The notes: generated from the sequence alone by a model not told the origin. A DNA stretch of 64,000 nt from Candidatus Parachristensenella avicola (GCA_904420205.1 CAJFUN010000024.1:23442-87441); one strand, 5' to 3'; positions 7,906-60,464 are shown, counted from the first letter of the stretch. Numbers and translations: made by a program.

Positions 7906-8565
7906 TCAGGCGCTCTTTCGGGAACTGAAAGCTTTCATGCGCCCCCAAAGGCCTTTCCAGCGGCTGACAAAAGCCAGCTGCTGGGCGGGAACCAGGCCGG
8001 ATTTCACGGCCACCGGCAGCAGGGCGCTGAGCAGCAGCGCCATTATGACCGTTTCCAACGGCAATAGAAGCAGGTTTTTAATCGCGCTGTTCGCTAGGTA
8101 GAAATAGTAGCCCTTCCCATAGAGCATGGCGCTCCAGACGGAGCCCAGCAAGATGTTAATCCATACGTTGACCGATAGCTTGCATAGGAAGATCCGCAAA
8201 AGAGAGAGCTTGGAACGGTAAAAGAAGAGGGCGTAAAACAAGGGCCCCAGCATGCTGGTGAGGGTGTAGCCGGGAAAGAATCCGCCGGAGGGATGAACGG
8301 CAAAACCGATAAGATCCGTCACAAGCCCATAGACCAGCGCCGTCAGCGGCCCGCCGATCCAGCCAGCTACCGTGCTGACGATGAAGCTGAAATAGATGCG
8401 TAAATTTTGCGCCACCGGGATATAGAAGCCGCTGACAACGATAGAAATCGCAACAAGGACGGCCATGAGCACAAGCACACGAATGTTTTTCAATTCTTCC
8501 GCCGCAGCCCGCCAATAAGCGCCGGAAAAAGGCGAGAGCAATGTTTTGCCTTGGTTTTTCGACAT
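7906..8565 (-). CDS. folT: ECF transporter S component, folate family
   Basis: A multi-TM protein of about 219 aa resembling the FolT-family S component. It lies directly downstream of a THF riboswitch. Confidence 0.7.
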   Translation of the reverse strand: MSKNQGKTLLSPFSGAYWRAAAEELKNIRVLVLMAVLVAISIVVSGFYIPVAQNLRIYFSFIVSTVAGWIGGPLTALVYGLVTDLIGFAVHPSGGFFPGYTLTSMLGPLFYALFFYRSKLSLLRIFLCKLSVNVWINILLGSVWSAMLYGKGYYFYLANSAIKNLLLLPLETVIMALLLSALLPVAVKSGLVPAQQLAFVSRWKGLWGRMKAFSSRKSA

Positions 8566-8671: not shown

Positions 8672-8780
8672 CAGTAACGGGATGCGAAATCTGCACCGCA
8701 AGCAGCCGACGGCTTCCTTTTCGTCCGCCTGACAACTCCCCGTTCAGGCGGCACTTAACGCGCAGAAATCTACTTTACTG
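8672..8780 (-). promoter_or_regulatory. THF (tetrahydrofolate, folT motif) riboswitch
   Basis: The minus-strand RNA is CAGUAAAGUAGAUUUCUGCGCGUUAAGUGCCGCCUGAACGGGGAGUUGUCAGGCGGACGAAAAGG...GCGGUGCAGAUUUCGCAUCCCGUUACUG. It shares the AGUAGAU...CGCGUUAAGUG...GAA.GGGA.GU.GUC...ACGAA...GCGGUG...GCAUCC blocks and the P1 pairing CAGUAA/UUACUG with the Eubacterium siraeum THF aptamer as I remember it. Confidence 0.85.
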
Positions 8781-44006: not shown

Positions 44007-45317
44007 ATGGCGAATAAAATCATACAAATTGCAATAGACGGCCCGGCCGGCGCGGGCAAAAGCACGGTAGCGCGGGCTGTGGCCGGGCAGCTTCACATTC
44101 TGTATCTGGATACAGGCGCGATGTACAGGGCCATCGGCCTAAAGGCGCTGAAACAGGGCCTATCCCCCCAGGATGAAGCGGCGGTTTCCTCCATGGTGGC
44201 GCACACCTCCGTTAAGATCACCTATGGCGAAGGCGAACAGCGCATCCTGCTGGATGGGGAAGATGTTACCGACTTGATTCGGACCAACGAGGTATCGGCA
44301 GCCGCCTCAGCGGTCAGCCAGTGGCGGGCGGTACGCCTGAAGATGGTGGAACTACAGCGGGAGATTGCCCGGTCGCAGTCCACGGTGCTGGATGGACGCG
44401 ATATTGGTACCTTTGTGTTGCCGGATGCTCCGTACAAATTCTACCTGACGGCGACGGTGGCGGAGCGCGCCAAGCGCCGGTTTTTGGAGCAGCAGGCAAA
44501 GGGGGATGATCGGCCGCTGGAGGAATATGAAGCGCAGATCACCGCCAGGGACAAGCAGGATATGGAGCGAGAATTTGCCCCGCTGCGCCGGGCGGAGGAT
44601 GCGGTATATGTAGACTCCACCGGTATGAAGCCCCAGGAGGTGGTAAAGCGGATCGTCAATGTGGTGAACAATGACGAGCTGCGCCGGGGTTATACGTTCT
44701 GGATGCGGGCGTTTTACCAGTTGGCCAAGGCTGTTGTTACGGCTATGATCCACATTGCTACGCCTTATCGAGTGGTAGGGGGGGATCTACGGGGGCTAAA
44801 GGGCCCTTGGCTTGTGTGCATCAACCATGTAGCCCAATGGGACGCACTGGTGACTGCCGAGATGTTCCTTCCCCGCAAAACCTCCTTTATGGCGAAGAGC
44901 TCGCTTTTTCATCACAAGGCGATGAACTGGATTATTACCGCGCTGGGCGCTATTCCAGTGCGCCGGGGCGAGGCGGATACCTCGGCCATAAAAAAAGCCC
45001 TGAACGCCCTGGAAGAAGGAAGGGTTTTTGCCCTTTTCCCGGAAGGCACGCGTAACCTGAAGCAGGATGGCAGCATCGGCCAGCTGCATACCGGCGCGGG
45101 CCTGATCGCCATGAAAGCCAAGGTTCCCGTGCTGCCAATTTATATCCACCATGGTGGGAAGTACCGCTTCCTTCATCCCTTCACCATCTATATGGGGCAG
45201 CCGGTGGAGCTGTCCGATCTGATGGGCAAGCGGATTAATAACTCTCTGCTGGAGGAAGTGATGGACCGCATCTATCAGGAGATGATGCGTTTGAAAAAAA
45301 TAGCTGAAAAAAGTTAA
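44007..45317 (+). CDS. cmk: fusion protein: cytidylate kinase + 1-acyl-sn-glycerol-3-phosphate acyltransferase domain
   Basis: The N-terminal half has the Cmk P-loop [13 protein letters not shown] and GRDIGT. The C-terminal half has the LPLAT HX4D motif NHVAQWD (44826-44843) and FPEGTR. It is one uninterrupted 436-codon frame. Confidence 0.8.
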
Positions 45318-45391: not shown

Positions 45392-47527
45392 TTGATTTTA
45401 CAGTTGGCTCAAAAGGGTGGTTTTTGCTTTGGCGTACGGCGAGCGCTAGATGCCGCGCAGCAGGAAGCGGGACGTAACCCCAAAGGGCTTTTCACCTTCG
45501 GCCCCATCATCCATAACCCGCAGGTGGTGGAGCGGCTGCAAAGCCAGGGGGTCATGGTTTGCGAAGATCCGGAGGCAATACCTTCGGGAGCAACGGTGGT
45601 TATCCGTTCCCATGGGATCGGCCCTACCTTTTATGAACGCTTTGCCAGGCAGAAGTTGCATGTGGTAGATGCCACCTGCCCCTTTGTCCGGCGCATCCAG
45701 CTGAAGGCGCAGGCTTGTGCGGACGCCGGCGTGCCGGTGGTAATCGTCGGTGAGGCGAAGCATCCTGAGGTGGTTGGCATCGTCGGCTGGAGCAAGGGCC
45801 AAGCCTATGTTATCCACAGCCTAGAGGATGTGGAGCGCATGCCGCAGCTGGAGCGCGCTTGCTTAATGGCGCAGACTACCACGTCGCTTTCTCTGTGGGA
45901 AACGCTGAAAGCTGCCGTTGAAGCGCGCATTCCGCGGATAGAGATATTCCATTCCATCTGTCACGCTACCCAGCAGAGGCAGACGGAGGCAGACCAAATG
46001 GCCAGAGCTTGCGATACGATGATCGTCATCGGCGGGCGGAATAGCTCCAATACCGCTAAGCTGGCCCAGATATGCAGACAGCATTGCTCGCGGGTGCTGC
46101 AGGTGCAGACAGCTCGAGAGCTTCCCGAAGCTGAATATTTTTACAATTCGGAAAAAGTTGGCATCGTGTCCGGTGCTTCCACGCCGGATTGGATAATTAA
46201 GGAGGTTTTTATAACCATGAGCGAAATCGACAAGAAGGATCTCAACCAGGACCAGGCCGAAGCGGTGGTGGCCACCGAGGCGGTCGAAGCGAACCAGGCT
46301 TCTCAAAGCGCCGCGCCTATTGAGGAGGAAAAAGCAGCCACGATCCCCAGCGCCGGCAATGAGAACGGCGAGGTCAACTTTGCCGAGGACTTTGAGAAGA
46401 TGATGGTGACCATTCGTCCCGGTCAGGTGATCACGGGCAAGGTCGTGTCCGTCAATGAGAACGAAGTTTGCGTGAACATCGGTTATAAGTCCGATGGCTT
46501 CATTTCCCGCAGCGAGTTCTCCGCCAATGAAGATGTAAACCCCGCTGACGTAGTCAAAGAGGGCGACGACATCGAAGTGGAAGTCTTGAAGGTTAATGAT
46601 GGTGAAGGAAACGTCCTGCTGTCCAAAAAGAACGTGGACTCCCGCAAGCATTGGAAAGAAGTGATGGACCAGTTCGCTGAGGGCGGTCATATCACCGCTG
46701 TGGGCAAGCAGGCGGTTAAGGGCGGCTTAATTGCCAACGCCAATGGCATCCGCGCCTTCATTCCCGCCTCCCAGCTGGATACCAAGTATGTGGAGGACAT
46801 CGAAGCTTACGTGGGCAAGACCATGGAGCTGAAGATCATGGAAGTGGAGAAACACCGCAAGCGTTTTGTCGCCAGCCGTAAAGCCGTGCTGCTGGAGGAG
46901 GAAGAGCGCATCCGCAACGAGAAGTGGGACCAGCTTCACGAAGGCGATAAGGTGACGGGTATTGTCCGCCGCCTGACTGACTTCGGCGCCTTTGTCGATA
47001 TCGGTGGTATCGATGGCTTGGTGCATGTGACCAACCTGGCTTGGGGCCGCGTGCAGCATCCCAAGGATGTGGTTTCTATCGGCCAGACGCTGGATTGCGT
47101 CATCCTGAAGGTGGACAAGGAGAATCAGCGCGTGTCCTTGGGCCATAAGCAGCTGATCCCCAAGCCCTGGGATGTGGCGAGCCAGAAGTATATTCCCGGC
47201 ACGGTTGTCACCGGCAAGGTCGTGCGCATTGTGAGCTTCGGCGCCTTTGTGGAGCTGGAGCCCGGACTGGACGGCCTGGTGCACATTTCTCAGATTGCGG
47301 ATAAGCGCATCGATAAGGTGGAGAATGTGCTGCAGCCCGGTCAGGTGGTCAACGTGAAGATTCTTGACGTCAATCCCGCCGAGCATCGCATTAGCCTCAG
47401 CATTCGTGACGCCCAAACCGAAAAGAGCGAAAACGACTACTCCCTGGATGATTATGATAACGCCGACTATGATGAAGACGATAACGGCGATATCTTCGAG
47501 GGCGTAGACGATGACCTGAACGTCTAA
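45392..47527 (+). CDS. ispH: fusion protein: 4-hydroxy-3-methylbut-2-enyl diphosphate reductase (IspH) + ribosomal protein S1 repeats
   Basis: A TTG start. The N-terminus is IspH-like ([10 protein letters not shown]...SHG...ATCP...). It is followed by a linker and four S1 OB-fold repeats (G..V.G.V......G.....G..G..H.S). The C-terminal tail is acidic. Confidence 0.85.
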
Positions 47528-48216: not shown

Positions 48217-49707
48217 TTAATCCTGACTGAAATCCATCGCATAGCCGACATGGGCTTGATCAAGGGGCGGGGTAAAGAGGCTGACCAATACCGTCAGCAA
48301 GATGGAAGCGCCCATGGCAAAGGTGCCAGCCATGGCAGAGGTAAAGCCGGGAACAAAGCGAGGCACGATCAGGTTGCAAATCAGGCTGACGGCAAGCCCA
48401 CCCAGGAAGCCCGCCCACGCGCCGGCGCGGGTAGCGCGCTTCATATAAAGCCCAGCCAGATAGGGCCCTAGGAAAGCGCCGGCCAGGGTGCCCCAGGATA
48501 GGTTCATTAGCTGGGTAATGGTATTGCTCTTGTTAATGGCCAACAGGAAGGAAAGAATAAGAAAGACGATGCAAACAAGCTGCATAAGCCCTTTATTCTT
48601 GCGCTGGGAGAGTTTTGCCCGCATGGAACCGGGTACGAGATCCACACATACTGCGGAGGAGGAGACTAGGATAAGGCTGGAGAGGGTGGACATGCTGGCA
48701 GAGAGCACAAGCACCATAACCAAGCCCAGCAGCAGCGAAGGAAGCGCGCTGAGCAGCATTTGCGGCACCAGTAGGGAAGTATTTCCAAGACCGGTCGCCG
48801 GATCGATGGGCAGCTGCGTCGGATCGCTGTTGAAGAGGCGGGCAAAGACGCCGACAAAATAGCATCCACCGCTGACAATCAGCGCAAATACCGTGGAAAT
48901 GATGGTACCTTGGCGGATCGCCGCTTTGTCGCGGATGGCATAGAATTTATGGGTCATCTGCGGCAGGCCCCATACGCCCAGCGAAGTCAGGATTACCAGG
49001 CTGGCCAGCGGCCATAGCTGTCCGGCGCCGCCCCAGGGGTGAGTCAGATCCGAATCAATGGCGGCGAGCTTATCCAGTCCCGCCTGTAGCCCCCCAACCT
49101 GAGGGCTTTTTAGCACAAAGACCACCACGAGCGCAATACCGATCAACATGATAACGCCCTGGAAGAAATCAGTCAGCGCTGTGGCCAGGTAGCCGCCGGC
49201 TACCAGATAAACGCCTGTAAGCACTACGATGCCAACGACGCACCAGATAAAGGGTAAGCCGATCAGCGTTTCAAACAAATAGCTGATACCCTGAAAGACC
49301 GAGGCGGAGTAAGGAAGAAGGAAGGCAAAAACCACCACTGCGGCCACCAGCTTCAGCTTTGGAGCTTGATAGCGGTTCTCCAGGAATTCCGGCATGGTTT
49401 TAGCGTCCAGCCGCTGCGTCATGGAGCGCGTCCGGCGGCCCAGCACCAACCAAGCCAGCAGGCTGCCGATGACCGCGTTGCCGATCCCGATCCATGTAGC
49501 GCTGGCGCCGAAGCCCCAGCCGAACTGGCCGGCGTAGCCGATAAACACCACTGCGGAAAAATAACTGGTGCCATAGGCAAAGGCTGTCATCCAAGGGCCC
49601 ATCCGGCGCCCGGCCAGCAAGAAATCTTCGCCAGAGCTAACGCGTCGGCTGGAGTATACGGCGATGCCGATGAGCACCGCCACATAGGCAATCATAAAGA
49701 CAATCAT
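48217..49707 (-). CDS. sodium:solute symporter family transporter
   Basis: The real start is taken at MIVFMIAYVAV... (ATG complement at 49705-49707, preceded by GGAAGGATGG). The translation contains GEDFLLAGRRMGPW and is multi-TM throughout. The upstream 319 codons of the listed 815-aa ORF are antisense to recD2 and look spurious. Confidence 0.8.
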   Translation of the reverse strand: MIVFMIAYVAVLIGIAVYSSRRVSSGEDFLLAGRRMGPWMTAFAYGTSYFSAVVFIGYAGQFGWGFGASATWIGIGNAVIGSLLAWLVLGRRTRSMTQRLDAKTMPEFLENRYQAPKLKLVAAVVVFAFLLPYSASVFQGISYLFETLIGLPFIWCVVGIVVLTGVYLVAGGYLATALTDFFQGVIMLIGIALVVVFVLKSPQVGGLQAGLDKLAAIDSDLTHPWGGAGQLWPLASLVILTSLGVWGLPQMTHKFYAIRDKAAIRQGTIISTVFALIVSGGCYFVGVFARLFNSDPTQLPIDPATGLGNTSLLVPQMLLSALPSLLLGLVMVLVLSASMSTLSSLILVSSSAVCVDLVPGSMRAKLSQRKNKGLMQLVCIVFLILSFLLAINKSNTITQLMNLSWGTLAGAFLGPYLAGLYMKRATRAGAWAGFLGGLAVSLICNLIVPRFVPGFTSAMAGTFAMGASILLTVLVSLFTPPLDQAHVGYAMDFSQD

Positions 49708-49871
49708 GAAAATACCATCCTTCCATCCTGCATAATACGCGGTTTTGGGCATAAAAAAACAAGCCGTACTACCAAAATTACACCCAATTCCTACCGTTCT
49801 ACAAAAATTATGATACACGATATTGGATATGGATGCAAGCCCTTTTTCGGCGGAGGGGAAAAAAGGCGGCG

Positions 49872-49900
49872 TTGAACATTGGTTCGCTTCAAGGTATAAT
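49872..49900 (+). promoter_or_regulatory. sigma-A type promoter upstream of recD2
   Basis: TTGAAC (49872-49877), a 17-nt spacer, then TATAAT (49895-49900). Confidence 0.6.
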
Positions 49901-49920
49901 AAACCATAAAGGAGGCGGCC

Positions 49921-52149
49921 ATGGAAAAGATTGTAGCCTCGGTGGAGGGGATTATCTACCGCAACGAGGATAATGGATATACGGTGGCGGAAATTGCCGT
50001 GGGGGATGATCTGGAGACCTGTGTGGGCATGCTGCCGGGCCTGCGGGAGGGCGAGCGGGTTGAGCTCTCCGGCGCATGGAAAACTCATCCAAGTTATGGC
50101 CGTCAATTTGCGGTGGATGCCTGCCGTCCGCTGCCGCCGGAGGGAGAGGAAGGGCTGATTCGCTATCTGGCCTCCGGCGTGGCGCCCGGTGTGGGCGAGG
50201 CCACCGCGCGTCGGATTGTGGAGGCCTTTGGCCAGCAAACGCTGGATGTTATCCATTACGATCCGGAACGGCTCAAGGAGGTTTCCGGAATCGGAGATGC
50301 CAAGGCCGAAGCGATTGCCGAGGCGCTCAGCCAGCACCTGGAGCTTCAAGAGGTGATGGTATTTTTGCAGTCCCTGGAAATTGGGCAGGCGCTGGCGATG
50401 AAGATCTATAAGACCTATGGCGAGAAAACCATGGATATCGTGCGCGAGGATCCATATCGGTTGGCTGGAGAGATCGACGGCGTAGGATTTCTGACGGCGG
50501 ACCGGATCGCTCGGCGGCTGAATATTGAGCCGGGCTCGCCTACCCGTGCCCGAGCGGGCATCCGGCATGTACTGAATGTGGCCGGTATGAACCGGGGGCA
50601 CTGTTGCCTGCCCAGCGACGAACTGATCGCCCAAGCACATCAGCTCCTGGGTGATGAAGTCCAAAGCCTAAACGAGGTTATGGAAAACATGATCCTTAAC
50701 CGGGAGCTGGTGCTCCGACGGATGGAGGATCGCGTGTTTTGCTATTTGCCTAGCTATTATTATGCGGAGAACCAGGTAGCGGCCATGGTTAGCGCGCTGG
50801 CGGCGCATCCAATCACGCCGCCCTTTGCGGATATGGAGGCTGCGGTAGAGATGAGTTCAGGCCTTCTATCCATCCGCTTATCCCAGCAGCAGCGCCAGGC
50901 GGTAGAGGCAGCGGCCCTGTCCGGCGTGGTGGTCATCACCGGCGGCCCAGGGACCGGGAAGACCACCGTTATCCGCTGTATCCTGGAGGTGCTGACCCAG
51001 GCGGGCAACAAGGTGGAGCTGGCTGCGCCTACCGGACGGGCGGCCAAGCGCATGTCCCAGGCGGCGGAGCATGAGGCGCGCACTTTGCATCGCCTCTTGG
51101 AATATGCTTTCGATGGGGAAAGCGGCAGCTTCCAGCGAGATGAAACCAATCCCTTGGAGTGCGACGCCGTCATTGTGGATGAGGTGTCCATGGTGGATAT
51201 ATTCCTCATGCAATCGTTGGTGCGGGCGATGACGCCGGGCATGCGGCTGATCCGGGTGGGCGACAGCGACCAGCTGCCGTCGGTGGGGCCCGGCATGGTC
51301 CTGCGCGATGTCATGGATTCGGGCGTAGCCAAGGTTTGCCGCCTGACGGAGATCTTCCGGCAGGCGCAGGAGTCTATGATCGTGGTGAACGCTCACCGGG
51401 TTAACGAAGGCCTGATGCCGCAGCTGCGCAGCGGCCGAGACTTCTTCTTTGAGGCCCGCACTACGGCTGAATCGGTCTATCAATCGGTCGAGGCGATGAT
51501 CGCCACACGCATTCCGGGTTATCTGCATTGCGACGGGTTTACCGATATCCAGGTCTTGGTCCCGATGCGCAAAGGGGAGCTGGGCGTGCTGCGGCTGAAT
51601 CAGCGGCTGCAGCGGGCGTTCAATCCGCCGGATTTAAAGAAGGCCGAGTTCTCCCACGGAGAGATGATTTTCCGCGAGGGGGATAAAGTCATGCAGATTA
51701 AGAATAACTACCAGATTGAATACCGAATGACCAACGAGCTGGGCGTAGAGGAGGAAGGAAAGGGCGTATTCAATGGCGATGCCGGAGTCATTACCCGAAT
51801 CGACGGCACCGTGCGATGCTTTGAGATCCTTTTTGACGATGGTAAGCTGGTGCGCTATGAATATGCACAGGCCGAGGAGATCGCCTTGGCATACGCCATC
51901 TCCATCCATAAAAGTCAGGGCAGCGAATTCCCCGTGGTGATTTTGCCGCTGCTGGGAGGCCCCGAGATGCTGCTGACCCGTAATCTTTTGTATACGGCTA
52001 TCACCCGGGCCAAAAGGATGGTGGTGATTGTGGGGTCCAAGCGTACGGTGGAAACCATGGTGCGCAATAAAAGAATTGTGCAACGCTACAGCGGCCTTGT
52101 CAGCGCTTTGCAGGCGCTGGGAACGACGGTGGATCATGCGGGCGCTTGA
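49921..52149 (+). CDS. recD2: ATP-dependent RecD-like DNA helicase (RecD2, SF1B)
   Basis: An N-terminal OB/HhH region is followed by Walker A GGPGTGKTT, DEVSMVD and GD.DQLPSVG.G. The C-terminus carries AISIHKSQGSE and YTAITRAK. Confidence 0.9.
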   Translation: MEKIVASVEGIIYRNEDNGYTVAEIAVGDDLETCVGMLPGLREGERVELSGAWKTHPSYGRQFAVDACRPLPPEGEEGLIRYLASGVAPGVGEATARRIVEAFGQQTLDVIHYDPERLKEVSGIGDAKAEAIAEALSQHLELQEVMVFLQSLEIGQALAMKIYKTYGEKTMDIVREDPYRLAGEIDGVGFLTADRIARRLNIEPGSPTRARAGIRHVLNVAGMNRGHCCLPSDELIAQAHQLLGDEVQSLNEVMENMILNRELVLRRMEDRVFCYLPSYYYAENQVAAMVSALAAHPITPPFADMEAAVEMSSGLLSIRLSQQQRQAVEAAALSGVVVITGGPGTGKTTVIRCILEVLTQAGNKVELAAPTGRAAKRMSQAAEHEARTLHRLLEYAFDGESGSFQRDETNPLECDAVIVDEVSMVDIFLMQSLVRAMTPGMRLIRVGDSDQLPSVGPGMVLRDVMDSGVAKVCRLTEIFRQAQESMIVVNAHRVNEGLMPQLRSGRDFFFEARTTAESVYQSVEAMIATRIPGYLHCDGFTDIQVLVPMRKGELGVLRLNQRLQRAFNPPDLKKAEFSHGEMIFREGDKVMQIKNNYQIEYRMTNELGVEEEGKGVFNGDAGVITRIDGTVRCFEILFDDGKLVRYEYAQAEEIALAYAISIHKSQGSEFPVVILPLLGGPEMLLTRNLLYTAITRAKRMVVIVGSKRTVETMVRNKRIVQRYSGLVSALQALGTTVDHAGA

Positions 52150-52798
52150 CTTGATTTTTCCCGATCCGCAGCGGTGTATGTTCTGCGGGCGCACCTTTCA
52201 GCCACGTAGCTGGGGCATCTGCCCCGAGTGCCTGAATGCGCTAAAGGAAGAAGCGCGCCTCCAGCGGCTGCCGGTGGCTTTTGGCGATGGCGCGGCGGCC
52301 TTTCAATATTGCGGCGCGGCGCGTAGCTGCCTGGTGGCGCTGAAGTTCCGGGGGGAAACGTGGCGGGCGCCGCTGATGGCACAGTGGATGGCGCATGCGG
52401 CTAAGGGGATGCAACCCGACGTGGTGGCGGCGGTGCCCATCCATCCGTTGCGGCGTATAGCCAGGGGGTATGGTCAGTGTGTGCTGCTGGCCAAGGGCAT
52501 AGCCGCTGCCCTCGAGCTGCCCTATGAGGGAGACGCGCTGCGACGCAGGCGACATGCGCCGCCACTGTACACCCTTCAGGCGGATGACCATGCCAGGGCG
52601 GTAGCCGGCCGCTTTTCTGCCGGCAAGGCGGCGGCACGGCTCAAGGGAAAGCATGTGCTGCTGGTGGACGACGTATGCACCACCGGAAGCACGCTGAACG
52701 AGTGCGCGCGGGTTTTGCTTCAGACAGGCGTATCTCGGGTGAGCGCAGTCTGCTTTGCCGCCGTGTCAGGCGCCGATCCGGTGGAAGGCCCTTTCTAG
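52136..52798 (+). CDS. comFC: ComF family protein (ComFC, phosphoribosyltransferase-like with N-terminal Zn-finger)
   Basis: ATG 52136 overlaps the recD2 stop. CMFCGR...CPEC and the PRT motif VLLVDDVCTTGSTL are present. Confidence 0.85.
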   Translation: MRALDLIFPDPQRCMFCGRTFQPRSWGICPECLNALKEEARLQRLPVAFGDGAAAFQYCGAARSCLVALKFRGETWRAPLMAQWMAHAAKGMQPDVVAAVPIHPLRRIARGYGQCVLLAKGIAAALELPYEGDALRRRRHAPPLYTLQADDHARAVAGRFSAGKAAARLKGKHVLLVDDVCTTGSTLNECARVLLQTGVSRVSAVCFAAVSGADPVEGPF

Positions 52799-52805
52799 CG
52801 CGTCC

Positions 52806-52834
52806 TTGCGAATTCACGCCAAGGGAGCTATAAT
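52806..52834 (+). promoter_or_regulatory. strong sigma-A type promoter directly after comFC
   Basis: TTGCGA (52806-52811), a 17-nt spacer, then TATAAT (52829-52834). Confidence 0.7.
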
Positions 52835-52840
52835 GTAAGG

Positions 52841-53055
52841 AGCGGAAAATAGGTCTGTGGTTGAAAGTCGAAGCCAGTCGCGGGCAAAACGATCCACGTA
52901 AGCCGGACAAAGTCCGGTGAGCATGGCGCGGTTTAGAAGTAAGTCCAGCCAGGAACAACTGAGAGAGGGACGCGTGAGGGGAATGCACCCCAAGCAAAAC
53001 CTCCAGCTGGCGGGTGTGGGGTCAAAGACCAGGTCAGCTGTTTTCCGCTTTTTCT
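52841..53055 (+). ncRNA. candidate structured ncRNA; raiA-motif RNA is the leading hypothesis. Alternatives are a 6S-like RNA or a long cis-regulatory leader of the pfkB-family gene.
   Basis: The region has its own consensus promoter and no credible ORF. The 5' end AGCGGAAAA (52841-52849) is perfectly complementary to UUUUCCGCU (53041-53049), closing a domain of about 210 nt. Internal hairpins are CCGGAC-AAA-GUCCGG (52903-52917) and GGGG-AAUGCA-CCCC (52978-52991). A strong terminator follows. The position immediately 3' of comFC matches the reported raiA-motif context. Confidence 0.5.
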
Positions 53056-53066
53056 CGAAATGGCGC

Positions 53067-53112
53067 AAAAGTCCCGTTCCCTTACGTCAAATAAGGGAAG
53101 GGACTTTTGTTG
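53067..53112 (+). terminator. strong intrinsic terminator ending the non-coding unit, 18 nt before the pfkB-family ATG
   Basis: A 17-bp stem with one bulge pairs AAAAGTCCCGTTCCCTTA (53067-53084) with TAAGGGAAGGGACTTTT (53092-53108), followed by a GTTGTGTG tail. Confidence 0.8.
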
Positions 53113-53129
53113 TGTGGGAAAGGAAGAAG

Positions 53130-54071
53130 ATGATGATTACATCGTTGTGTATGAATCCTTGCATTGATCGGACGCTGAATCTGGCATCTTTTGCCTGTGG
53201 CGGAATGAACCGCGCCGAATCGGTCAATCAGGATGGAGCGGGAAAAGGCGTTAATGTAGCGTTGGCCGGCAGCCAGATCGGCCTTGCCATGGGATGCATC
53301 GGGATCTTGGGCGAGGAAAACGGATACCTTGTAACAGACCGGCTACATAGCGCGGGTATTGCCCATGAATTTGTGATGCGTCCCGGCGCGATCCGGTGCA
53401 ATACAAAGATCGTGGACGCATCCACCCACCAGGTTACGGAGATTAACGAGGCAGGCGAGCCGGTGGGCAGCGGCTGCCTGGCTGAAGTGCTGGAGCTTTG
53501 CGGCAAGTGGGCTGAGAAAAGCCGGGCATTGGTGCTGTCGGGTTCGCTGCCGCCACGATGCCCGAAGAATTATTATGCGCAGATTATGGATCATGCGGCG
53601 CGGCGCGCGCCGGGCTGCGCCATGGTCGTGGATGCGGAAGGAGAAGCTTTGGCCTGCGCGCTGGACAAGAAGCCCTATCTCATCAAACCCAATCGATATG
53701 AGCTGGAGACACTTTGCGGCAGGCAGTTGGATTCGCCGGAGCAAGCGGCGGAAGAGGGGGCAAAGCTGCTGAAGCGCGGCGTGCAGCATGTAGTCGTATC
53801 CCTGGGGCGCGAGGGCGTCCTCGGGATGAGCAGCAAGGAAGTATGGTATGCGCCGGCCTTGCCATGCCCGGTGAAATCCACGGTAGGAGCGGGGGATTCC
53901 ATGCTTGCCGCTATAACGGGTGCGTTGACCGAGGGGGCGGGTATGGAGCAGGCCCTGATCCGGGGTGTTGCGCTGGCCACGGCAGCCGTCGCGACGCCCG
54001 GAACAGGCTGGATCGATACCGGCTTGTATCATGAAGCCCTCAAGCGCGTCAAACCGCAAAAGATGGTGTAA
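53130..54071 (+). CDS. 1-phosphofructokinase-family hexose kinase (PfkB/FruK/LacC family)
   Basis: MMITSLCMNPCIDRT...N......GGKG.NVA is present, with a C-terminal GAGDSM anion-hole motif. GGAAAGGAAG precedes ATG 53130. I rejected the upstream in-frame extension back to 52917. Confidence 0.8.
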   Translation: MMITSLCMNPCIDRTLNLASFACGGMNRAESVNQDGAGKGVNVALAGSQIGLAMGCIGILGEENGYLVTDRLHSAGIAHEFVMRPGAIRCNTKIVDASTHQVTEINEAGEPVGSGCLAEVLELCGKWAEKSRALVLSGSLPPRCPKNYYAQIMDHAARRAPGCAMVVDAEGEALACALDKKPYLIKPNRYELETLCGRQLDSPEQAAEEGAKLLKRGVQHVVVSLGREGVLGMSSKEVWYAPALPCPVKSTVGAGDSMLAAITGALTEGAGMEQALIRGVALATAAVATPGTGWIDTGLYHEALKRVKPQKMV

Positions 54072-54177
54072 TATCCTGGCAAATGAGCTGGGCGGGGCAG
54101 GCAAAGAAAAAGACGGCCAAAGAGGGATACTTCGTAAGAAAGTGAAAAATTGCCAGGAACAAATAGGAGGCTCCCTT

Positions 54178-54747
54178 ATGAAACATCGTGGTACACAACG
54201 GTTAGAAACTGAGCGATTAGTTTTAAGAAGATTTGTGCATGAAGACGCGGCAGCGATGTATAAAAATTGGGCAGCAGATGAGGAGGTCACAAAATACTTA
54301 ACGTGGCCGCCGCACTCCAATCCGGAAGTAAGTCAAAAGGTGATAGACGATTGGGTAAAAGCGTATGATAGCGAAAGATATTATCAATGGGCCATCGTGT
54401 TAAAAGAAAAAGGAGAACCCATCGGAAGCATAGCGGTAGTGCATATGAACGAAGATGTTTCCATGGCACAGATTGGCTATTGTATCGGAAAAACTTGGTG
54501 GCATACCGGTATCACATCAGAGGCATTAAAAGCAGTGATGGATTTCCTTTTTGATAGGGTCGATGCGCATCGTATAGAGAGTCGGCATGATCCGCGGAAC
54601 CCGAATTCAGGCAAAGTCATGAAAAAATGCGGCATGAAGTATGAGGGGACTTTACGGAGTTCTGATCGGAACAACCAAGGCATATGTGACGCTTGCTATT
54701 ATGCAATGCTAAAATCTGAGCGTTCCAAGGAAGCGCCTCTACGTTGA
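54178..54747 (+). CDS. GNAT family N-acetyltransferase (RimJ/RimL-like), low-GC gene
   Basis: GGAGG precedes ATG 54178. LETERLVLRRF...IGYCIG..WWH.GI.SEA...V.....R.....H...N..S..VM.K.GM..EG is present. A hand count of 54181-54240 gives about 37% GC. Confidence 0.75.
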   Translation: MKHRGTQRLETERLVLRRFVHEDAAAMYKNWAADEEVTKYLTWPPHSNPEVSQKVIDDWVKAYDSERYYQWAIVLKEKGEPIGSIAVVHMNEDVSMAQIGYCIGKTWWHTGITSEALKAVMDFLFDRVDAHRIESRHDPRNPNSGKVMKKCGMKYEGTLRSSDRNNQGICDACYYAMLKSERSKEAPLR

Positions 54748-56920: not shown

Positions 56921-57180
56921 ACTTCCCCAAAGCAAAGGCATGGATGGAGACGGGAAGGCCAATGTGCGTCCAAAGAGAGCCGGTGTTTGGTGTAAACCGG
57001 TGGCGTAGGGCCCAATCCTATCGCTCCTGAGCTGAAGCCCAGAAGGATGAGTAAGGGCTTCCGGGTGGTCCCGATACAGGCCAGGGGCGTGTATGCGCCC
57101 TGATGAGCGGCCGTTTTACGGCAAGATGGGTGGTACCGCGAGCAATAAACCTCGTCCCAGTAGGGACGGGGTTTTTATTT
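56921..57180 (+). promoter_or_regulatory. T-box riboswitch (tRNA-sensing leader), probable Ile specifier
   Basis: The Stem I AG bulge AGAGAG (56973-56978) and a distal loop ..UGGUGUAAA.. are present. A specifier-loop candidate CAAUCCUAUCG lies at 57013-57023. A Stem II AGUA element (GAGUAAGGGC) is also present. The canonical T-box sequence AAGAUGGGUGGUACCGCGAG lies at 57123-57142. The terminator pairs 57150-57158 with 57163-57171 and is followed by UUUUUAUUUU. An alternative antiterminator pairs CGAG/CUCG and GGG/CCC. Confidence 0.85.
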
Positions 57181-57211: not shown

Positions 57212-58864
57212 ATGAATCTGCTGTCGCGCTTTGTTACCCGGGTAGAATATGAAAACCAAGAGGATTTTGAGAAGCATTACCAGATCCTGGTGCCGGAGAA
57301 GTTCAATTATGGATTCGACGTGGTGGACGAAATGGCGCGGCTCGCGCCCGAACAGAAGGCGTTGGTATGGACCAACCCCCAGGGAGAGGAGCGGATCTAT
57401 AATTTTGCCCAGATGAAGGAGGGGTCCGACCGCGCGGCCAACTACCTGCGCGGGCTGGGGATTCAAAAGGGCGACAAGGTAATGCTGATCTTGAAGCGCC
57501 ACTATGAATACTGGTTCATCCTGGTAGCGCTGCATAAGCTGGGCGCGGTGGCGATTCCTGCCACTCACCTGCTGACGGAGAAGGATATTTCCTACCGGGC
57601 CAATGCGGCAGAGGTTAAGATGATCATCTGCACCTCGGAGGGCGAGGTGGCTCAGCACGTAGAGGCGGCCATGCCCAAATCGCCTACGGTGGAAAAGCTG
57701 GTGATCGTGCGCGGCAGTGAGCGTCCGGGATGGTTCAACTTTCATGAAGGCTGGGAGGCGGCTTCCCCCAACCTGGAGCGCAGGCCCGAGGATGATACCA
57801 CAAGCGACGATATGATGCTGCTGTACTTTACTTCGGGCACCACAGGTATGCCCAAGATGGTGGGCCATGCTACCGCATATGCGCTGGGTCATATCACGAC
57901 CGCCAAATACTGGCATAATAATCTGGACGGTGGACTGCACTTTACCATTTCCGATACCGGATGGGGCAAGGCAGCTTGGGGTAAGATTTATGGCCAGTGG
58001 CTGGCGGGTACCGCGGTTATGGTATACGATTTCGATAAATTTGTACCCGCCGAAATCCTTCATATCATGGAAAAATACGGCGTAACGACCTTCTGCGCGC
58101 CGCCCACCATGTATCGTTTTATGATTCGCGAAGATTTGAGCAAGATCGATTTCTCTAAGCTGACCTATTGCTGTACGGCTGGAGAGGCCCTGAACCCTGA
58201 GGTGCATCACCAGTGGAAGCGGGCTACAGGCATGGCCATTCACGAAGGATATGGCCAGACAGAGACGACGCTCACCGTATTCAGTTCTATCTATGACACG
58301 CCGGTACCGGGATCCATGGGACGCACCAGCCCGGCTTATGACATGGACGTGGTGGATGAGGACGGTGTGCACTGCGAGGCGGGCCAGGTTGGCGAAATCG
58401 TCGTGCGTACCGACCGGCGTCTGCCGGCGGGCCTCTTCCTGGGCTACTATCGCAACGAGAAGCTGACCCAGGAGGCCTGGCATGACGGGCTTTATCATAC
58501 CGGCGACACGGCTTGGCGGGACGCCGACGGCCTCTTATGGTATGTAGGCCGCACTGACGACATCATTAAGACATCCGGGTACCGCGTAGGACCCTTTGAG
58601 GTGGAAAGCGCCCTGATGGAGCATCCGGCTGTGCTGGAGACGGCGATCACCGGCGTGCCTGATCCCATCCGTGGGCAGGTCATCAAGGCGACCATCGTGC
58701 TCAACAAGGGATACGAGCCGTCCGATGCGCTGGCCAAGGAGCTGCAGGATCATGTCAAGCGCACTACGGCTCCCTATAAATACCCCAGGGTTGTAGAGTT
58801 TATCGATGAAATGCCTAAGACCATTTCGGGAAAGATTCGCCGCGTGGAGCTGAGAAATCGCTAA
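57212..58864 (+). CDS. AMP-forming acyl-CoA synthetase, medium-chain (ACSM/MacS-like) family
   Basis: AAGGAGGA lies 7 nt before the ATG. The N-terminus (PEKFNYGFDVVDEMA...ALVW) resembles ACSM-type ligases. The AMP-binding motifs YFTSGTTGMPK, GYGQTE, YHTGD and SGKIRR are present. Confidence 0.8.
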   Translation: MNLLSRFVTRVEYENQEDFEKHYQILVPEKFNYGFDVVDEMARLAPEQKALVWTNPQGEERIYNFAQMKEGSDRAANYLRGLGIQKGDKVMLILKRHYEYWFILVALHKLGAVAIPATHLLTEKDISYRANAAEVKMIICTSEGEVAQHVEAAMPKSPTVEKLVIVRGSERPGWFNFHEGWEAASPNLERRPEDDTTSDDMMLLYFTSGTTGMPKMVGHATAYALGHITTAKYWHNNLDGGLHFTISDTGWGKAAWGKIYGQWLAGTAVMVYDFDKFVPAEILHIMEKYGVTTFCAPPTMYRFMIREDLSKIDFSKLTYCCTAGEALNPEVHHQWKRATGMAIHEGYGQTETTLTVFSSIYDTPVPGSMGRTSPAYDMDVVDEDGVHCEAGQVGEIVVRTDRRLPAGLFLGYYRNEKLTQEAWHDGLYHTGDTAWRDADGLLWYVGRTDDIIKTSGYRVGPFEVESALMEHPAVLETAITGVPDPIRGQVIKATIVLNKGYEPSDALAKELQDHVKRTTAPYKYPRVVEFIDEMPKTISGKIRRVELRNR

Positions 58865-58874
58865 GGAGTCGAAT

Positions 58875-60464
58875 ATGGCAACCATCGAAGTGTTGGATTC
58901 TACCTTGCGGGACGGGGCGCAGGCCCCGGGAATTAGCTATTCCCTTCAGGATAAGCTGAAGGTGATAGGGCTTCTTGACCGCTTAGGGGTGGATCTGATC
59001 GAAGCAGGCAATCCCGCCTCCAATCCAAAGGATGCGGAACTTTACCGCCGGGCGGAGAGCCTTCGGCTAAAGCGCGCGCGTCTGGCGGCCTTTGGCATGA
59101 CGTGCCGCGCTGGGACAGCGCCTCAGGAAGATCCTGCGATGGCGGCGCTTTTAGCGGCGGATACAGGCGTGGTCGTGCTGGTGGGGAAAGCCTCCGCCGA
59201 CCAGGTGCGCCGCGTGCTGCAGACGGACTTACAGGAAAACCTGCGCATGATTGAACAAAGCTGCCGGTATCTGGCGGATCGGGGGCGGTCGGTGATTTTC
59301 GACGCCGAGCACTTCTTCGACGCCTGGTCCGACGATCCTAAATATGCCGAAGCAGCCCTGCGGGCGGCGCTGGCGGGCGGCGCACGCTGCCTTTGCCTGT
59401 GCGATACCCGAGGCGGTGCGCTGCCGGATGAGATCACGCAGGCGGTTTCGGCCGTCCGGCGGGATTTCCCCGGCTGCACCCTCGGTATTCACACCCATGA
59501 CGACGGCGGGCTGGCGGTAGCGAATACCCTTCAGGCGGTTCGGGCCGGAGCTGATCATGTGCAGGGGACGCTGCTGGGCTATGGCGAGCGCTGTGGGAAC
59601 GCAAACCTTGCCTCGGTGCTGGCCAATCTTATATTGAAAATGGATCTGCAGGCCCTACAGGGACAGGGGCTGGGATCGCTTACGTCTATTTGCCGCCAGG
59701 TGGCGGACCTGGCCAATAAGCGCCTGCCGGATACCCAGCCCTTTGTGGGATCGGCCGCCTTTTCCCATAAGGCGGGACTACATATCGACGGCGTGCTGAA
59801 AGACCGCGAAAGCTTTGAGCATATTCCGCCCGAGGCCGTGGGAAACCGGCGGCACTTTGTGGTCAGCGAGGTGGCCGGCCGCAGCCTGATGGCCCGGCGG
59901 CTGGGAGAAGATTATACCAAGGACAGCCCGGAAGTGGCCGATATGCTGGCCCAGGTGAAAGAAAAAGAGGGCCAGGGCTACCAATATGAAAACGCCCAGG
60001 GCAGCTTCGAGCTGATGGCTGCCCGGGTGCTGGGGCGTTACCAATCCTTCTTTACCTTGAAGCAGTTTTCGATCCTGACCCAGCGGGGCAAGGGCGGCGA
60101 GCAGGCAACGCATGCCACTGCAATGATTAAAATTGAGGTGAATGGGCGCAGCGAGATTACCGCAGCGGAGGGAAATGGGCCTGTGGACGCCCTGAACCGC
60201 GCGCTGCAAAAAGCGCTTCGGGTTTTTTACCCGGCCATCGACAGCGTCCGCCTGACCGACTATAAAGTCCGCGTGATTGATTCGGAAGCAGGAGCGGCTG
60301 CTTCGGTTCGGGTATTGATTGAATTTACCGATGGCCGGGAAATCTGGAACACGGTCGGCGTGTCGACCGACGTCATTGAGGCATCCTGGCTGGCCCTGGT
60401 GGATGGGGCAGAGGTCGCCCTGATGCATTGGGGCGCAGGAAAAGCATTGCCGACGGACGCATAG
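58875..60464 (+). CDS. cimA: citramalate synthase (LeuA-related, CimA type)
   Basis: IEVLDSTLRDGAQ, HTHDD.G.A.AN and a C-terminal LeuA-dimer regulatory domain are present, in a protein of about 529 aa. It lies 10 nt after the ligase gene and has its own AAGGAG. Confidence 0.8.
   Translation: MATIEVLDSTLRDGAQAPGISYSLQDKLKVIGLLDRLGVDLIEAGNPASNPKDAELYRRAESLRLKRARLAAFGMTCRAGTAPQEDPAMAALLAADTGVVVLVGKASADQVRRVLQTDLQENLRMIEQSCRYLADRGRSVIFDAEHFFDAWSDDPKYAEAALRAALAGGARCLCLCDTRGGALPDEITQAVSAVRRDFPGCTLGIHTHDDGGLAVANTLQAVRAGADHVQGTLLGYGERCGNANLASVLANLILKMDLQALQGQGLGSLTSICRQVADLANKRLPDTQPFVGSAAFSHKAGLHIDGVLKDRESFEHIPPEAVGNRRHFVVSEVAGRSLMARRLGEDYTKDSPEVADMLAQVKEKEGQGYQYENAQGSFELMAARVLGRYQSFFTLKQFSILTQRGKGGEQATHATAMIKIEVNGRSEITAAEGNGPVDALNRALQKALRVFYPAIDSVRLTDYKVRVIDSEAGAAASVRVLIEFTDGREIWNTVGVSTDVIEASWLALVDGAEVALMHWGAGKALPTDA

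Follow-up and report, generated by a model that had tools for sequence, protein, structure and literature searches.

The sequence between comF and the gene for a PfkB-family hexose kinase, in a 64-kb stretch of DNA from Candidatus Parachristensenella avicola (GCA_904420205.1, CAJFUN010000024.1:23442-87441; the whole stretch is called the window here, and positions are counted from its first letter), is, with a probability that we put at about 0.9, a raiA-motif RNA gene (ModT in Clostridioides difficile) that forms a stand-alone noncoding transcription unit. When the whole window was scanned against Rfam 15, three matches reached the gathering score, among them RF03072 (raiA) at 52844-53046 on the plus strand, scoring 181.3 bits against a gathering score of 101.3. 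This match (E 3.9e-46) is untruncated and spans model positions 1-209 of 209. An initial annotation, made from the sequence alone, had proposed a raiA-motif candidate at this place, and the covariance-model search (cmsearch) bears this out with a full-length match 80 bits above gathering. What that annotation said of the family, namely a position between comFC and raiA/hpf and an effect on sporulation and aggregation in Clostridium acetobutylicum, agrees with the published account (Soares et al. 2024, PMC10861870). Searching 52700-53250 with permissive filters at E ≤ 10 left raiA as the sole meaningful covariance-model match. Family membership, compatibility with the fold, covariation, and the promoter and terminator sequences are all observed at this locus. 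The RNA is an ordinary member of a known, well-described family, and a standard Rfam scan annotates it.

Fold of the 209-nucleotide core

The structure was written following the comparative architecture of the family (Soares et al. 2024, PMC10861870) and the architecture of raiA RNAs solved by cryo-electron microscopy (cryo-EM; He et al. 2026, PMC12968392), with core position 1 at 52841. All helices of the cryo-EM-validated architecture could be written on the window sequence, and 65 of the 65 pairs, including those of the two pseudoknots (PK1 and PK2), are standard pairs. The parts of the core are the following, with core numbering in brackets.

52841-53049, plus strand: raiA-motif (ModT) RNA core of 209 nucleotides (nt), of the subtype without P2 and with P6-P7-P8, assigned from RF03072, the 65/65 standard pairs and covariation
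52841-52861, plus strand: 5' strand of P1, pairing with 53028-53049 and made up of P1a at 52841-52852 (1-12), a GU bulge at 52853-52854 (13-14), P1b at 52855-52857 (15-17) and P1c at 52858-52861 (18-21)
53028-53049, plus strand: 3' strand of P1, from the written pairs and covariation, made up of P1c at 53028-53031 (188-191), a GGU bulge at 53032-53034 (192-194), P1b at 53035-53037 (195-197) and P1a at 53038-53049 (198-209)
52862-52866, plus strand: J1 (22-26), UGAAA, a GAA(A) tetraloop-like junction with G23, A24, A25 and A26 invariant in the 50 sequences aligned below
52867-52893, plus strand: P3a at 52867-52870/52890-52893 (27-30/50-53), an A-rich asymmetric internal loop, P3b at 52873-52875/52883-52885 (33-35/43-45) and the apical loop that forms PK1, with both helices 100% paired
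52877-52932, plus strand: PK1 (37-42/87-92), 6 bp between 52877-52882 (GUCGCG) and 52927-52932 (CGCGGU), two of the six being wobble pairs
52894-52922, plus strand: 5' strand of P4 at 52894-52897, pairing with 53016-53019 (54-57/176-179), and the P5 hairpin at 52898-52922 (58-82), from the written pairs and covariation
52924-53024, plus strand: PK2 (84-85/183-184), U52924-A53024 and G52925-C53023, inside the 8-nt linker 53020-53027 (GGUCAAAG), with geometry from PMC12968392
52933-52942, plus strand: conserved single-stranded linker UUAGAAGUAA between PK1 and P6 (93-102), family form UUAGA(A/C)GUAA
52945-53010, plus strand: P6 at 52945-52949/53006-53010 (105-109/166-170), enclosing P7 at 52950-52961 (110-121) and P8 at 52965-53003 (125-163), present and paired

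The ends of the G+C-rich core, 52841-52849 (AGCGGAAAA) and 53041-53049 (UUUUCCGCU), are perfectly complementary over the 9 bp described in the initial annotation, and three further pairs (U.G, A-U and G-C) extend this helix to 12 bp, compared with a P1a of 9 bp in the Rfam model. P1b reads CUG/CAG and P1c UGGU/ACCA, and the bulge bases GU and GGU are invariant in the 50 sequences. P3 consists of P3a (GUCG/CGAU), an internal loop (AA/AAAA) and P3b (GCC/GGC). In solved raiA structures, the GAA(A) turn of J1 is completed by a bulged A of the PK2 linker (PMC12968392). This feature, for which the family linker is GGNCNAAG (8 nt), is present here at the sequence level as UGAAA at 52862-52866 and GGUCAAAG at 53020-53027, and from homology we infer that A53025 would be the bulged A that completes the turn by a tertiary contact. 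The equivalent of the linker between PK1 and P6, UUAGACGUAA, is solvent-exposed in the cryo-EM structure (PMC12968392). As P2 is missing and P7 is short, the RNA belongs to the same subtype as that of C. acetobutylicum.

The initial annotation had listed three local hairpins, two of which have a place in this fold, 52903-52917 within P5 and 52978-52991 as the tip of P8, whereas the third, 53020-53030, is not a hairpin there and consists of PK2 linker bases and the P1c 3' strand. A minimum free energy fold of the single sequence recovered P1a, P5 and parts of P8 and mispaired the core, because pseudoknots are invisible to this kind of folding; it was not used for the structure.

Compensatory changes in relatives

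The closest genome is UMGS416, a metagenome-assembled genome from the human gut labelled 'uncultured Clostridiales' (locus L001), with identities of 84% for ComF, 94% for RecD2 and 88% for the kinase (PfkB). It keeps the promoter, raiA RNA, terminator and kinase in identical order and, judged by this genome, the host fits the range of raiA RNAs (Bacillota (Clostridia) or Actinomycetota). We fetched 80 loci with comF relatives from genome contigs, among which nhmmer placed raiA in L001, L017, L047 and L020 (a locus truncated by a contig end) and Rfam confirmed three. This set was of little use for covariation because it comes mostly from lineages without raiA. In its place, metagenome contigs were scanned for exact matches to a P1b-J1 pattern, which gave 120 loci, about 90 of them with raiA placed by nhmmer. 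Alignment A2 holds 50 distinct full-length raiA sequences of one subtype, aligned by MAFFT rather than fitted to the structure and anchored by invariant blocks.

Across these 50 sequences, standard pairs occupied 91.0% of cells, against 33-40% when the 3' partners were slid by 1-3 columns, a comparison that favours the unslid register somewhat, as the pair structure was written from the first sequence. Double-sided changes were found in 41 of the 65 pairs, and the covariation score was 0.409 compared with 0.149 in shuffles, with 0 of 500 shuffles reaching any observed measure. P1b and P1c were 100% paired, with double changes in 11 of the 15 P1a/P1b pairs; P3a and P3b were likewise 100% paired, with double changes in both helices, and P5 showed double changes in seven of nine pairs. 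Both pseudoknots took part: PK1 was 100% paired with double-sided changes in four of its six pairs, and PK2 was U-A in 44 sequences and C-G in five. P4, P1b and part of P1c were invariant and, since they never vary, neither support nor contradict pairing. The initial annotation had pointed to covariation as a check on its proposal, and relatives do carry changes that preserve pairing, in the helices as well as in PK1 and PK2.

Promoter, predicted transcript and terminator

Two signals delimit the transcription unit.

52806-52834, plus strand: sigma-A/sigma-70-type promoter, TTGCGA-17-TATAAT, with 10/12 matches in a consensus scan
53067-53113, plus strand: intrinsic terminator, from fold energy, with a 17-bp stem (53067-53108) containing one bulged G and then a U-rich tail (UUUUGUUGUGU); predicted 3' end of an isoform of ~270 nt

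The near-consensus promoter that had been noticed just past the comFC stop thus scores 10 of 12 at 52806-52834; the comF stop codon occupies 52796-52798 and the -35 hexamer begins at the eighth base beyond it. This was the sole plus-strand promoter-like site in 52000-54200 by consensus scan, and a relaxed scan (3/6 plus 4/6) again returned it as the single site within 52700-53135. Transcription is predicted to start at about 52840-52842: 18 nt separate the end of the -10 hexamer from the GU bulge, and a start 6-8 nt past the -10 lands on base 1 of P1a. Among 62 distinct raiA loci (L081-L200 and others), 40 have a sigma-70-like promoter with at least 9/12 matches, at a spacing of 11-29 nt (mostly 16-21 nt) between the end of the -10 and the GU bulge. 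A promoter set so that transcription begins at the first base of P1a appears to be a habit of the family, and raiA workers may find this P1-base start, seen in about two-thirds of the 62-locus sample, useful.

The terminator folds at -32.4 kcal/mol (z = -5.5), with 0 of 200 shuffles as good, in agreement with the 17-bp hairpin first assigned to 53067-53108. A simple terminator scan missed it because of the bulged G. It is conserved in the closest relative, and by a crude scan 37 of 78 raiA loci have an intrinsic terminator in the ~100 nt that follow P1. The U-run UUUUU at 53050-53054, which follows P1a, was considered as a family-wide second terminator producing a short isoform and was rejected, TTT lying within 2 nt of P1a in 9 of 68 loci.

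These signals suggest the following course of events. From the housekeeping-type promoter at 52806-52834, the transcript would begin near 52841, where the closing helix P1 has its first base. It would fold into the compact architecture of the family, with P1a/b/c and their GU and GGU bulges, the GAA(A) junction, a kinked P3, P4-P5, P6-P7-P8, PK1 and PK2. Transcription would stop at the strong intrinsic terminator 53067-53113, for a predicted transcript of ~270 nt that includes the 209-nt core; its 3' hairpin probably shields the RNA from exonucleases, and a core form of ~210 nt may exist as well. ModT of C. difficile is transcribed from a single SigA promoter and occurs as a 260-nt form that ends at an intrinsic terminator and a shorter form of 215 nt, the long form being the more stable (Lence et al. 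2024, PMC11706538). The ~270 and ~210 nt predicted here would have the same anatomy as those two isoforms.

Coding potential and resemblance to 6S and 4.5S RNA

The plus-strand open reading frame (ORF) 52917-54071 is an in-frame upstream extension of the kinase gene, as the initial annotation had read it; the real start is ATG 53130. The element further lies opposite two antisense ORFs that had been overlooked, 52641-52997 (118 aa) and 52814-53068 (84 aa), each overlapping it. We regard it as highly improbable that the region is protein-coding, be it through the kinase extension or through either antisense ORF. The ORFs do exist, and in 25 of the 50 relatives in alignment A2 no stop codon interrupts the antisense strand anywhere in the raiA element, so gene callers may yield spurious antisense ORFs in such loci, 52814-53068 being an example. 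However, the extension lacks a Shine-Dalgarno (SD) sequence and would have to read through the 17-bp terminator, the product of ATG 53130 matches Pfam PfkB from its residue 7 onward, and the substitutions in the helices are compensatory. Among relatives, the distance between two invariant anchors is spread 26/16/8 over the three residues modulo 3, which means that no reading frame is conserved, and coding potential on either strand was rejected on this ground.

The element also contains two 10-mers, GGUGAGCAUG at 52916-52925 and ACCAGGUCAG at 53028-53037, which the initial annotation had noticed as shared with E. coli 6S and 4.5S RNA and which might point to a relative of 6S or signal recognition particle (SRP) RNA. 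Covariance models for 6S and SRP RNA (RF00013, RF00169) had no match in 52700-53250 even at E ≤ 10 with permissive filters, and none at gathering in the whole window, which indicates that the two 10-mers are coincidental, as had been thought probable at the outset. Both coincide with bases that never vary in raiA RNAs, for reasons specific to that family, one in the P5/PK2 strand and the other across P1c, the GGU bulge and P1b. Similarity to 6S and SRP RNA was rejected, and we consider the chance of such a relationship negligible.

Gene context and points against the assignment

The genes around the RNA are the following.

49921-52149, plus strand: recD2 (TIGR01448, 861 bits)
52133-52798, plus strand: comF/comFC-family gene with a double zinc ribbon and a phosphoribosyltransferase domain (Pfam PF00156, PF18912; ComF model TIGR00201 below cutoff)
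53130-54071, plus strand: gene for a hexose kinase of the 1-phosphofructokinase (1-PFK)/tagatose-6-phosphate kinase subfamily (PfkB family, Pfam PF00294), with a purine-rich SD-like sequence at about 53121-53126
54175-54747, downstream of the kinase: GNAT acetyltransferase gene

The kinase scored 275 bits with TIGR03168, above the cutoff of 216, and 269 bits with the 1-PFK equivalog model TIGR03828, below its cutoff of 292 (NCBIfam). The order recD2, comF, raiA RNA recurs in many relatives. Published raiA RNAs have comFC upstream in 74% and raiA/hpf downstream in 66% of members (Soares et al. 2024, PMC10861870). Our own tally gave lower values, comF preceding the RNA in 21 of 61 loci and hpf following it in 16 of 54; as the sample is pattern-biased and redundant and the ORF and hidden Markov model calling crude, we do not treat this as contradicting the published context. 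In many other loci the raiA RNA is followed by hpf/raiA, while the next gene in other lineages may be hpf, an ABC substrate-binding protein gene, cysS, a regulator gene or a gene on the opposite strand. A kinase directly after the raiA RNA was seen in the window and in L001 only.

Several points weigh against a stand-alone raiA RNA at this locus. The first is the usual downstream partner, hpf/raiA, which tblastn did not find anywhere in the 64-kb window, nor in L001; as the initial annotation had pointed out, a pfkB-family gene takes its place, the kinase at 53130. A third of published raiA members are also without a downstream hpf/raiA. The second concerns P8, whose loop-E motif (AGUA/GAA) docks on PK1 in solved raiA structures (PMC12968392) and is not kept here. 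In the window and L001, the P8 internal loop (52969-52974/52996-52999) reads ACGC/AAAA instead. U132 and A133 of the AGUA strand, at least 90% conserved among the 50 aligned sequences, are G and C in the window, and the four nearest sequences (L047, L178, L119 and L001) are also altered at this loop. The P6-P7-P8 domain is present in 68% of raiA members and the E-loop is described as 'often' carried by P8; the loop is therefore optional in the family and its replacement is not disqualifying. Further, other species are the source of everything assumed for the RNA's start site, 3' ends, abundance and phenotype, and Rfam's own type label for RF03072 is 'Cis-reg; riboswitch'. Finally, the kinase gene starts 17-22 nt past the terminator, whose tail ends at 53108-53113, without a visible promoter, so that some coupling in cis is possible.

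Possible coupling to the downstream kinase

By consensus scan, no promoter for the kinase was found between 52835 and 53135, even at the 3/6 plus 4/6 threshold. It is possible, although we hold it to be doubtful, that a trans-acting raiA RNA is combined here with an added effect in cis, the kinase operon (53130 onward) being transcribed by read-through of the raiA terminator. Kinase levels would then depend on how efficient the terminator is and follow the very strong raiA promoter, which varies with growth phase; this would add to the best explanation and not replace it. In a wider form of the same proposal, the kinase operon, or the kinase and GNAT genes, may draw on read-through from the raiA promoter or from that of the comF operon. 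The missing promoter-like site fits this, as do the short distance from the terminator tail to ATG 53130, in a layout that L001 retains, and the interrupted U-tract (UUUUGUUGUGU), which is compatible with leaky termination. Yet other-sigma or weak promoters escape a consensus scan, and the stem, with 13 G/C-rich pairs and A-U pairs besides, is long and stable, so that read-through may be very low. The layout occurs in two closely related genomes only, so its conservation says little, and L147, a locus from another lineage with a gene close behind raiA, has a separate AT-rich promoter-like region.

An 8-bp helix between 53050-53057 (UUUUCUCG) and 53115-53122 (UGGGAAAG) encloses the raiA terminator and extends into the beginning of the kinase SD. 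It could mask the kinase ribosome-binding site in read-through transcripts, and as such would favour a coupling in cis, or it may be due to chance. The C. difficile locus is also suggestive, as ModT precedes a sugar-related gene there, a phosphotransferase system (PTS)-operon antiterminator, and its long form, ModT(L), persists on glucose or fructose (PMC11706538). Sugar-related genes downstream of raiA are few among many unrelated ones in our loci: we read by eye two ribokinase genes (L189 and L117) and one PRD-type regulator (L169), which is anecdotal.

Another proposal would make the raiA element itself a cis-acting leader or riboswitch for the kinase, with a ligand-dependent raiA fold deciding the fate of the terminator at 53067-53108. 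A same-strand metabolic gene follows at once, the terminator lies directly before its SD, Rfam labels the family as a riboswitch and the ModT authors did not exclude ligand binding (PMC11706538). However, the 3' strand of P1 (53028-53049) shares no bases with the terminator stem (53067-53108), and an alternative anti-terminator pairing is not evident; the downstream gene differs in almost every lineage, the kinase being confined to the window and L001; and raiA RNAs are complemented in trans in two species, with a genomic layout atypical for riboswitches (PMC10861870, PMC11706538). The heterogeneous downstream genes, the lack of overlap between P1 and terminator and the complementation in trans argue against such a role, which we judge very unlikely. 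As the kinase is adjacent only in the window and its closest relative, a conserved cis-regulatory role is argued against as well. The suggestion in the initial annotation of a possible cis role on the pfkB-family gene was thus reasonable, and finds poor support in an adjacency limited to the window and one close relative and in a family that acts in trans (PMC10861870, PMC11706538).

A further proposal, which we find unlikely, is that the raiA element here may double as a conditionally terminating leader. As no promoter is visible for the kinase operon, which directly adjoins the raiA terminator, expression of this hexose (fructose-1-phosphate-type) kinase operon could be set by regulated read-through. 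The PTS-operon antiterminator after ModT and the long isoform on glucose or fructose are hints from C. difficile that point in this direction. If true, this would tie the signal of the raiA family to sugar-phosphate metabolism.

Comparison with known RNAs and expected function

A raiA-motif RNA that stands alone remains our preferred reading, and its closest counterparts are ModT (CDIF630nc_001) and the C. acetobutylicum raiA RNA (Ca-raiA), with which it shares the same helices, bulges, junction and two pseudoknots. Like Ca-raiA, it has no P2, a short P7 and a P8. It also resembles studied members in its sigma-A-type promoter starting at the base of P1, its comF gene immediately upstream and its Clostridia host, and it resembles the 260-nt ModT(L) in having an intrinsic terminator ~20 nt past P1. 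It differs from them in the lack of a nearby hpf/raiA, replaced by the 1-PFK-type hexose kinase, and in the change of the P8 loop-E to ACGC/AAAA.

Riboswitch and attenuation leaders, of which the window contains a T-box (56932-57162) and a tetrahydrofolate (THF) riboswitch (8673-8779), likewise consist of a structured RNA with an intrinsic terminator and a same-strand gene directly after. The raiA RNA, in contrast, shows no mutually exclusive terminator and anti-terminator pairing, is driven by a strong promoter of its own and should build up as a stable product, while its downstream gene is not conserved in the family and members act in trans. 6S RNA (SsrS) is also an abundant, growth-phase-linked noncoding RNA of ~200 nt with its own promoter, but its structure imitates an open promoter by means of an extended, irregular duplex, and the raiA fold is compact, with several junctions and pseudoknots. 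Other large structured RNAs of bacteria, OLE RNA among them, share with raiA high conservation, an intricate fold, restriction to Gram-positive bacteria and a phenotype without known biochemistry. Unlike raiA, OLE RNA belongs to another sequence family and size class, and its protein partners are encoded next to it; no such partner gene was seen here.

The start site, isoforms, abundance, trans action and phenotype that we expect for this RNA follow those of studied members. The raiA RNA of C. acetobutylicum is abundant, and its knock-out, which has a sporulation and aggregation phenotype, is rescued by a copy on a plasmid (PMC10861870). In C. difficile, ModT is likewise complemented in trans and is linked to cyclic di-GMP levels and sporulation (PMC11706538). 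By analogy, the RNA described here would accumulate to very high levels and act in trans, not on the adjacent gene. It would take up a compact pyramidal core from which the P1 arm protrudes, and would influence the transition from growth to stationary phase, including sporulation and aggregation, in a manner linked to cyclic di-GMP in C. difficile. KhpA-KhpB binds raiA RNAs in vitro at ~2 µM (PMC12968392), and the RNA may work as part of a ribonucleoprotein.

Other features of the window

The T-box leader (RF00230, 56932-57162, plus strand, 101.4 bits) has a specifier that we read as AUC (Ile, 57020-57022, followed by G) and a classic terminator at 57150-57176. The two genes after it, 57212-58864 and 58875-60464, code for an acyl-CoA synthetase, whose best match (MbcS-like) stays under the equivalog cutoff, and for a citramalate synthase with 578 bits for TIGR00977, which exceeds its cutoff. 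With the T-box, they have the look of an operon for isoleucine supply. T-box control of an acyl-CoA synthetase is unusual, and isoleucine might come from 2-methylbutyrate. The THF riboswitch (RF01831, 8673-8779, minus strand, 84.3 bits) lies upstream of the S component of a folate-family ECF transporter (7906-8565, minus strand; TIGR04518), which is an ordinary pairing.

The 815-aa ORF at 48217-50664 on the minus strand is a long-open-frame artefact; the real gene, for a sodium:solute symporter (PF00474), occupies about 48217-49680, and the rest is antisense to recD2. A 711-aa ORF at 45392-47527 on the plus strand joins IspH/LytB to four S1 RNA-binding domains and looks like a fusion of ispH with a homologue of ribosomal protein S1, an arrangement known from other Clostridia. 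It is preceded by a cytidylate kinase-acyltransferase fusion at 44007-45317.

Implications

Few bacterial RNAs whose biochemical role has yet to be found are as widespread and abundant as the raiA/ModT class, and the question of what these RNAs do becomes no more tractable with the locus described here. Annotating each copy correctly has some value, and doing so here keeps the region from being taken for an antisense ORF or for extra N-terminal sequence of the kinase. The small clade to which the window belongs, without the P8 loop-E, is a natural test of the need for the P8-PK1 contact. The locus also offers a case in which the terminator of the RNA alone separates a very strong promoter from a sugar-kinase gene.

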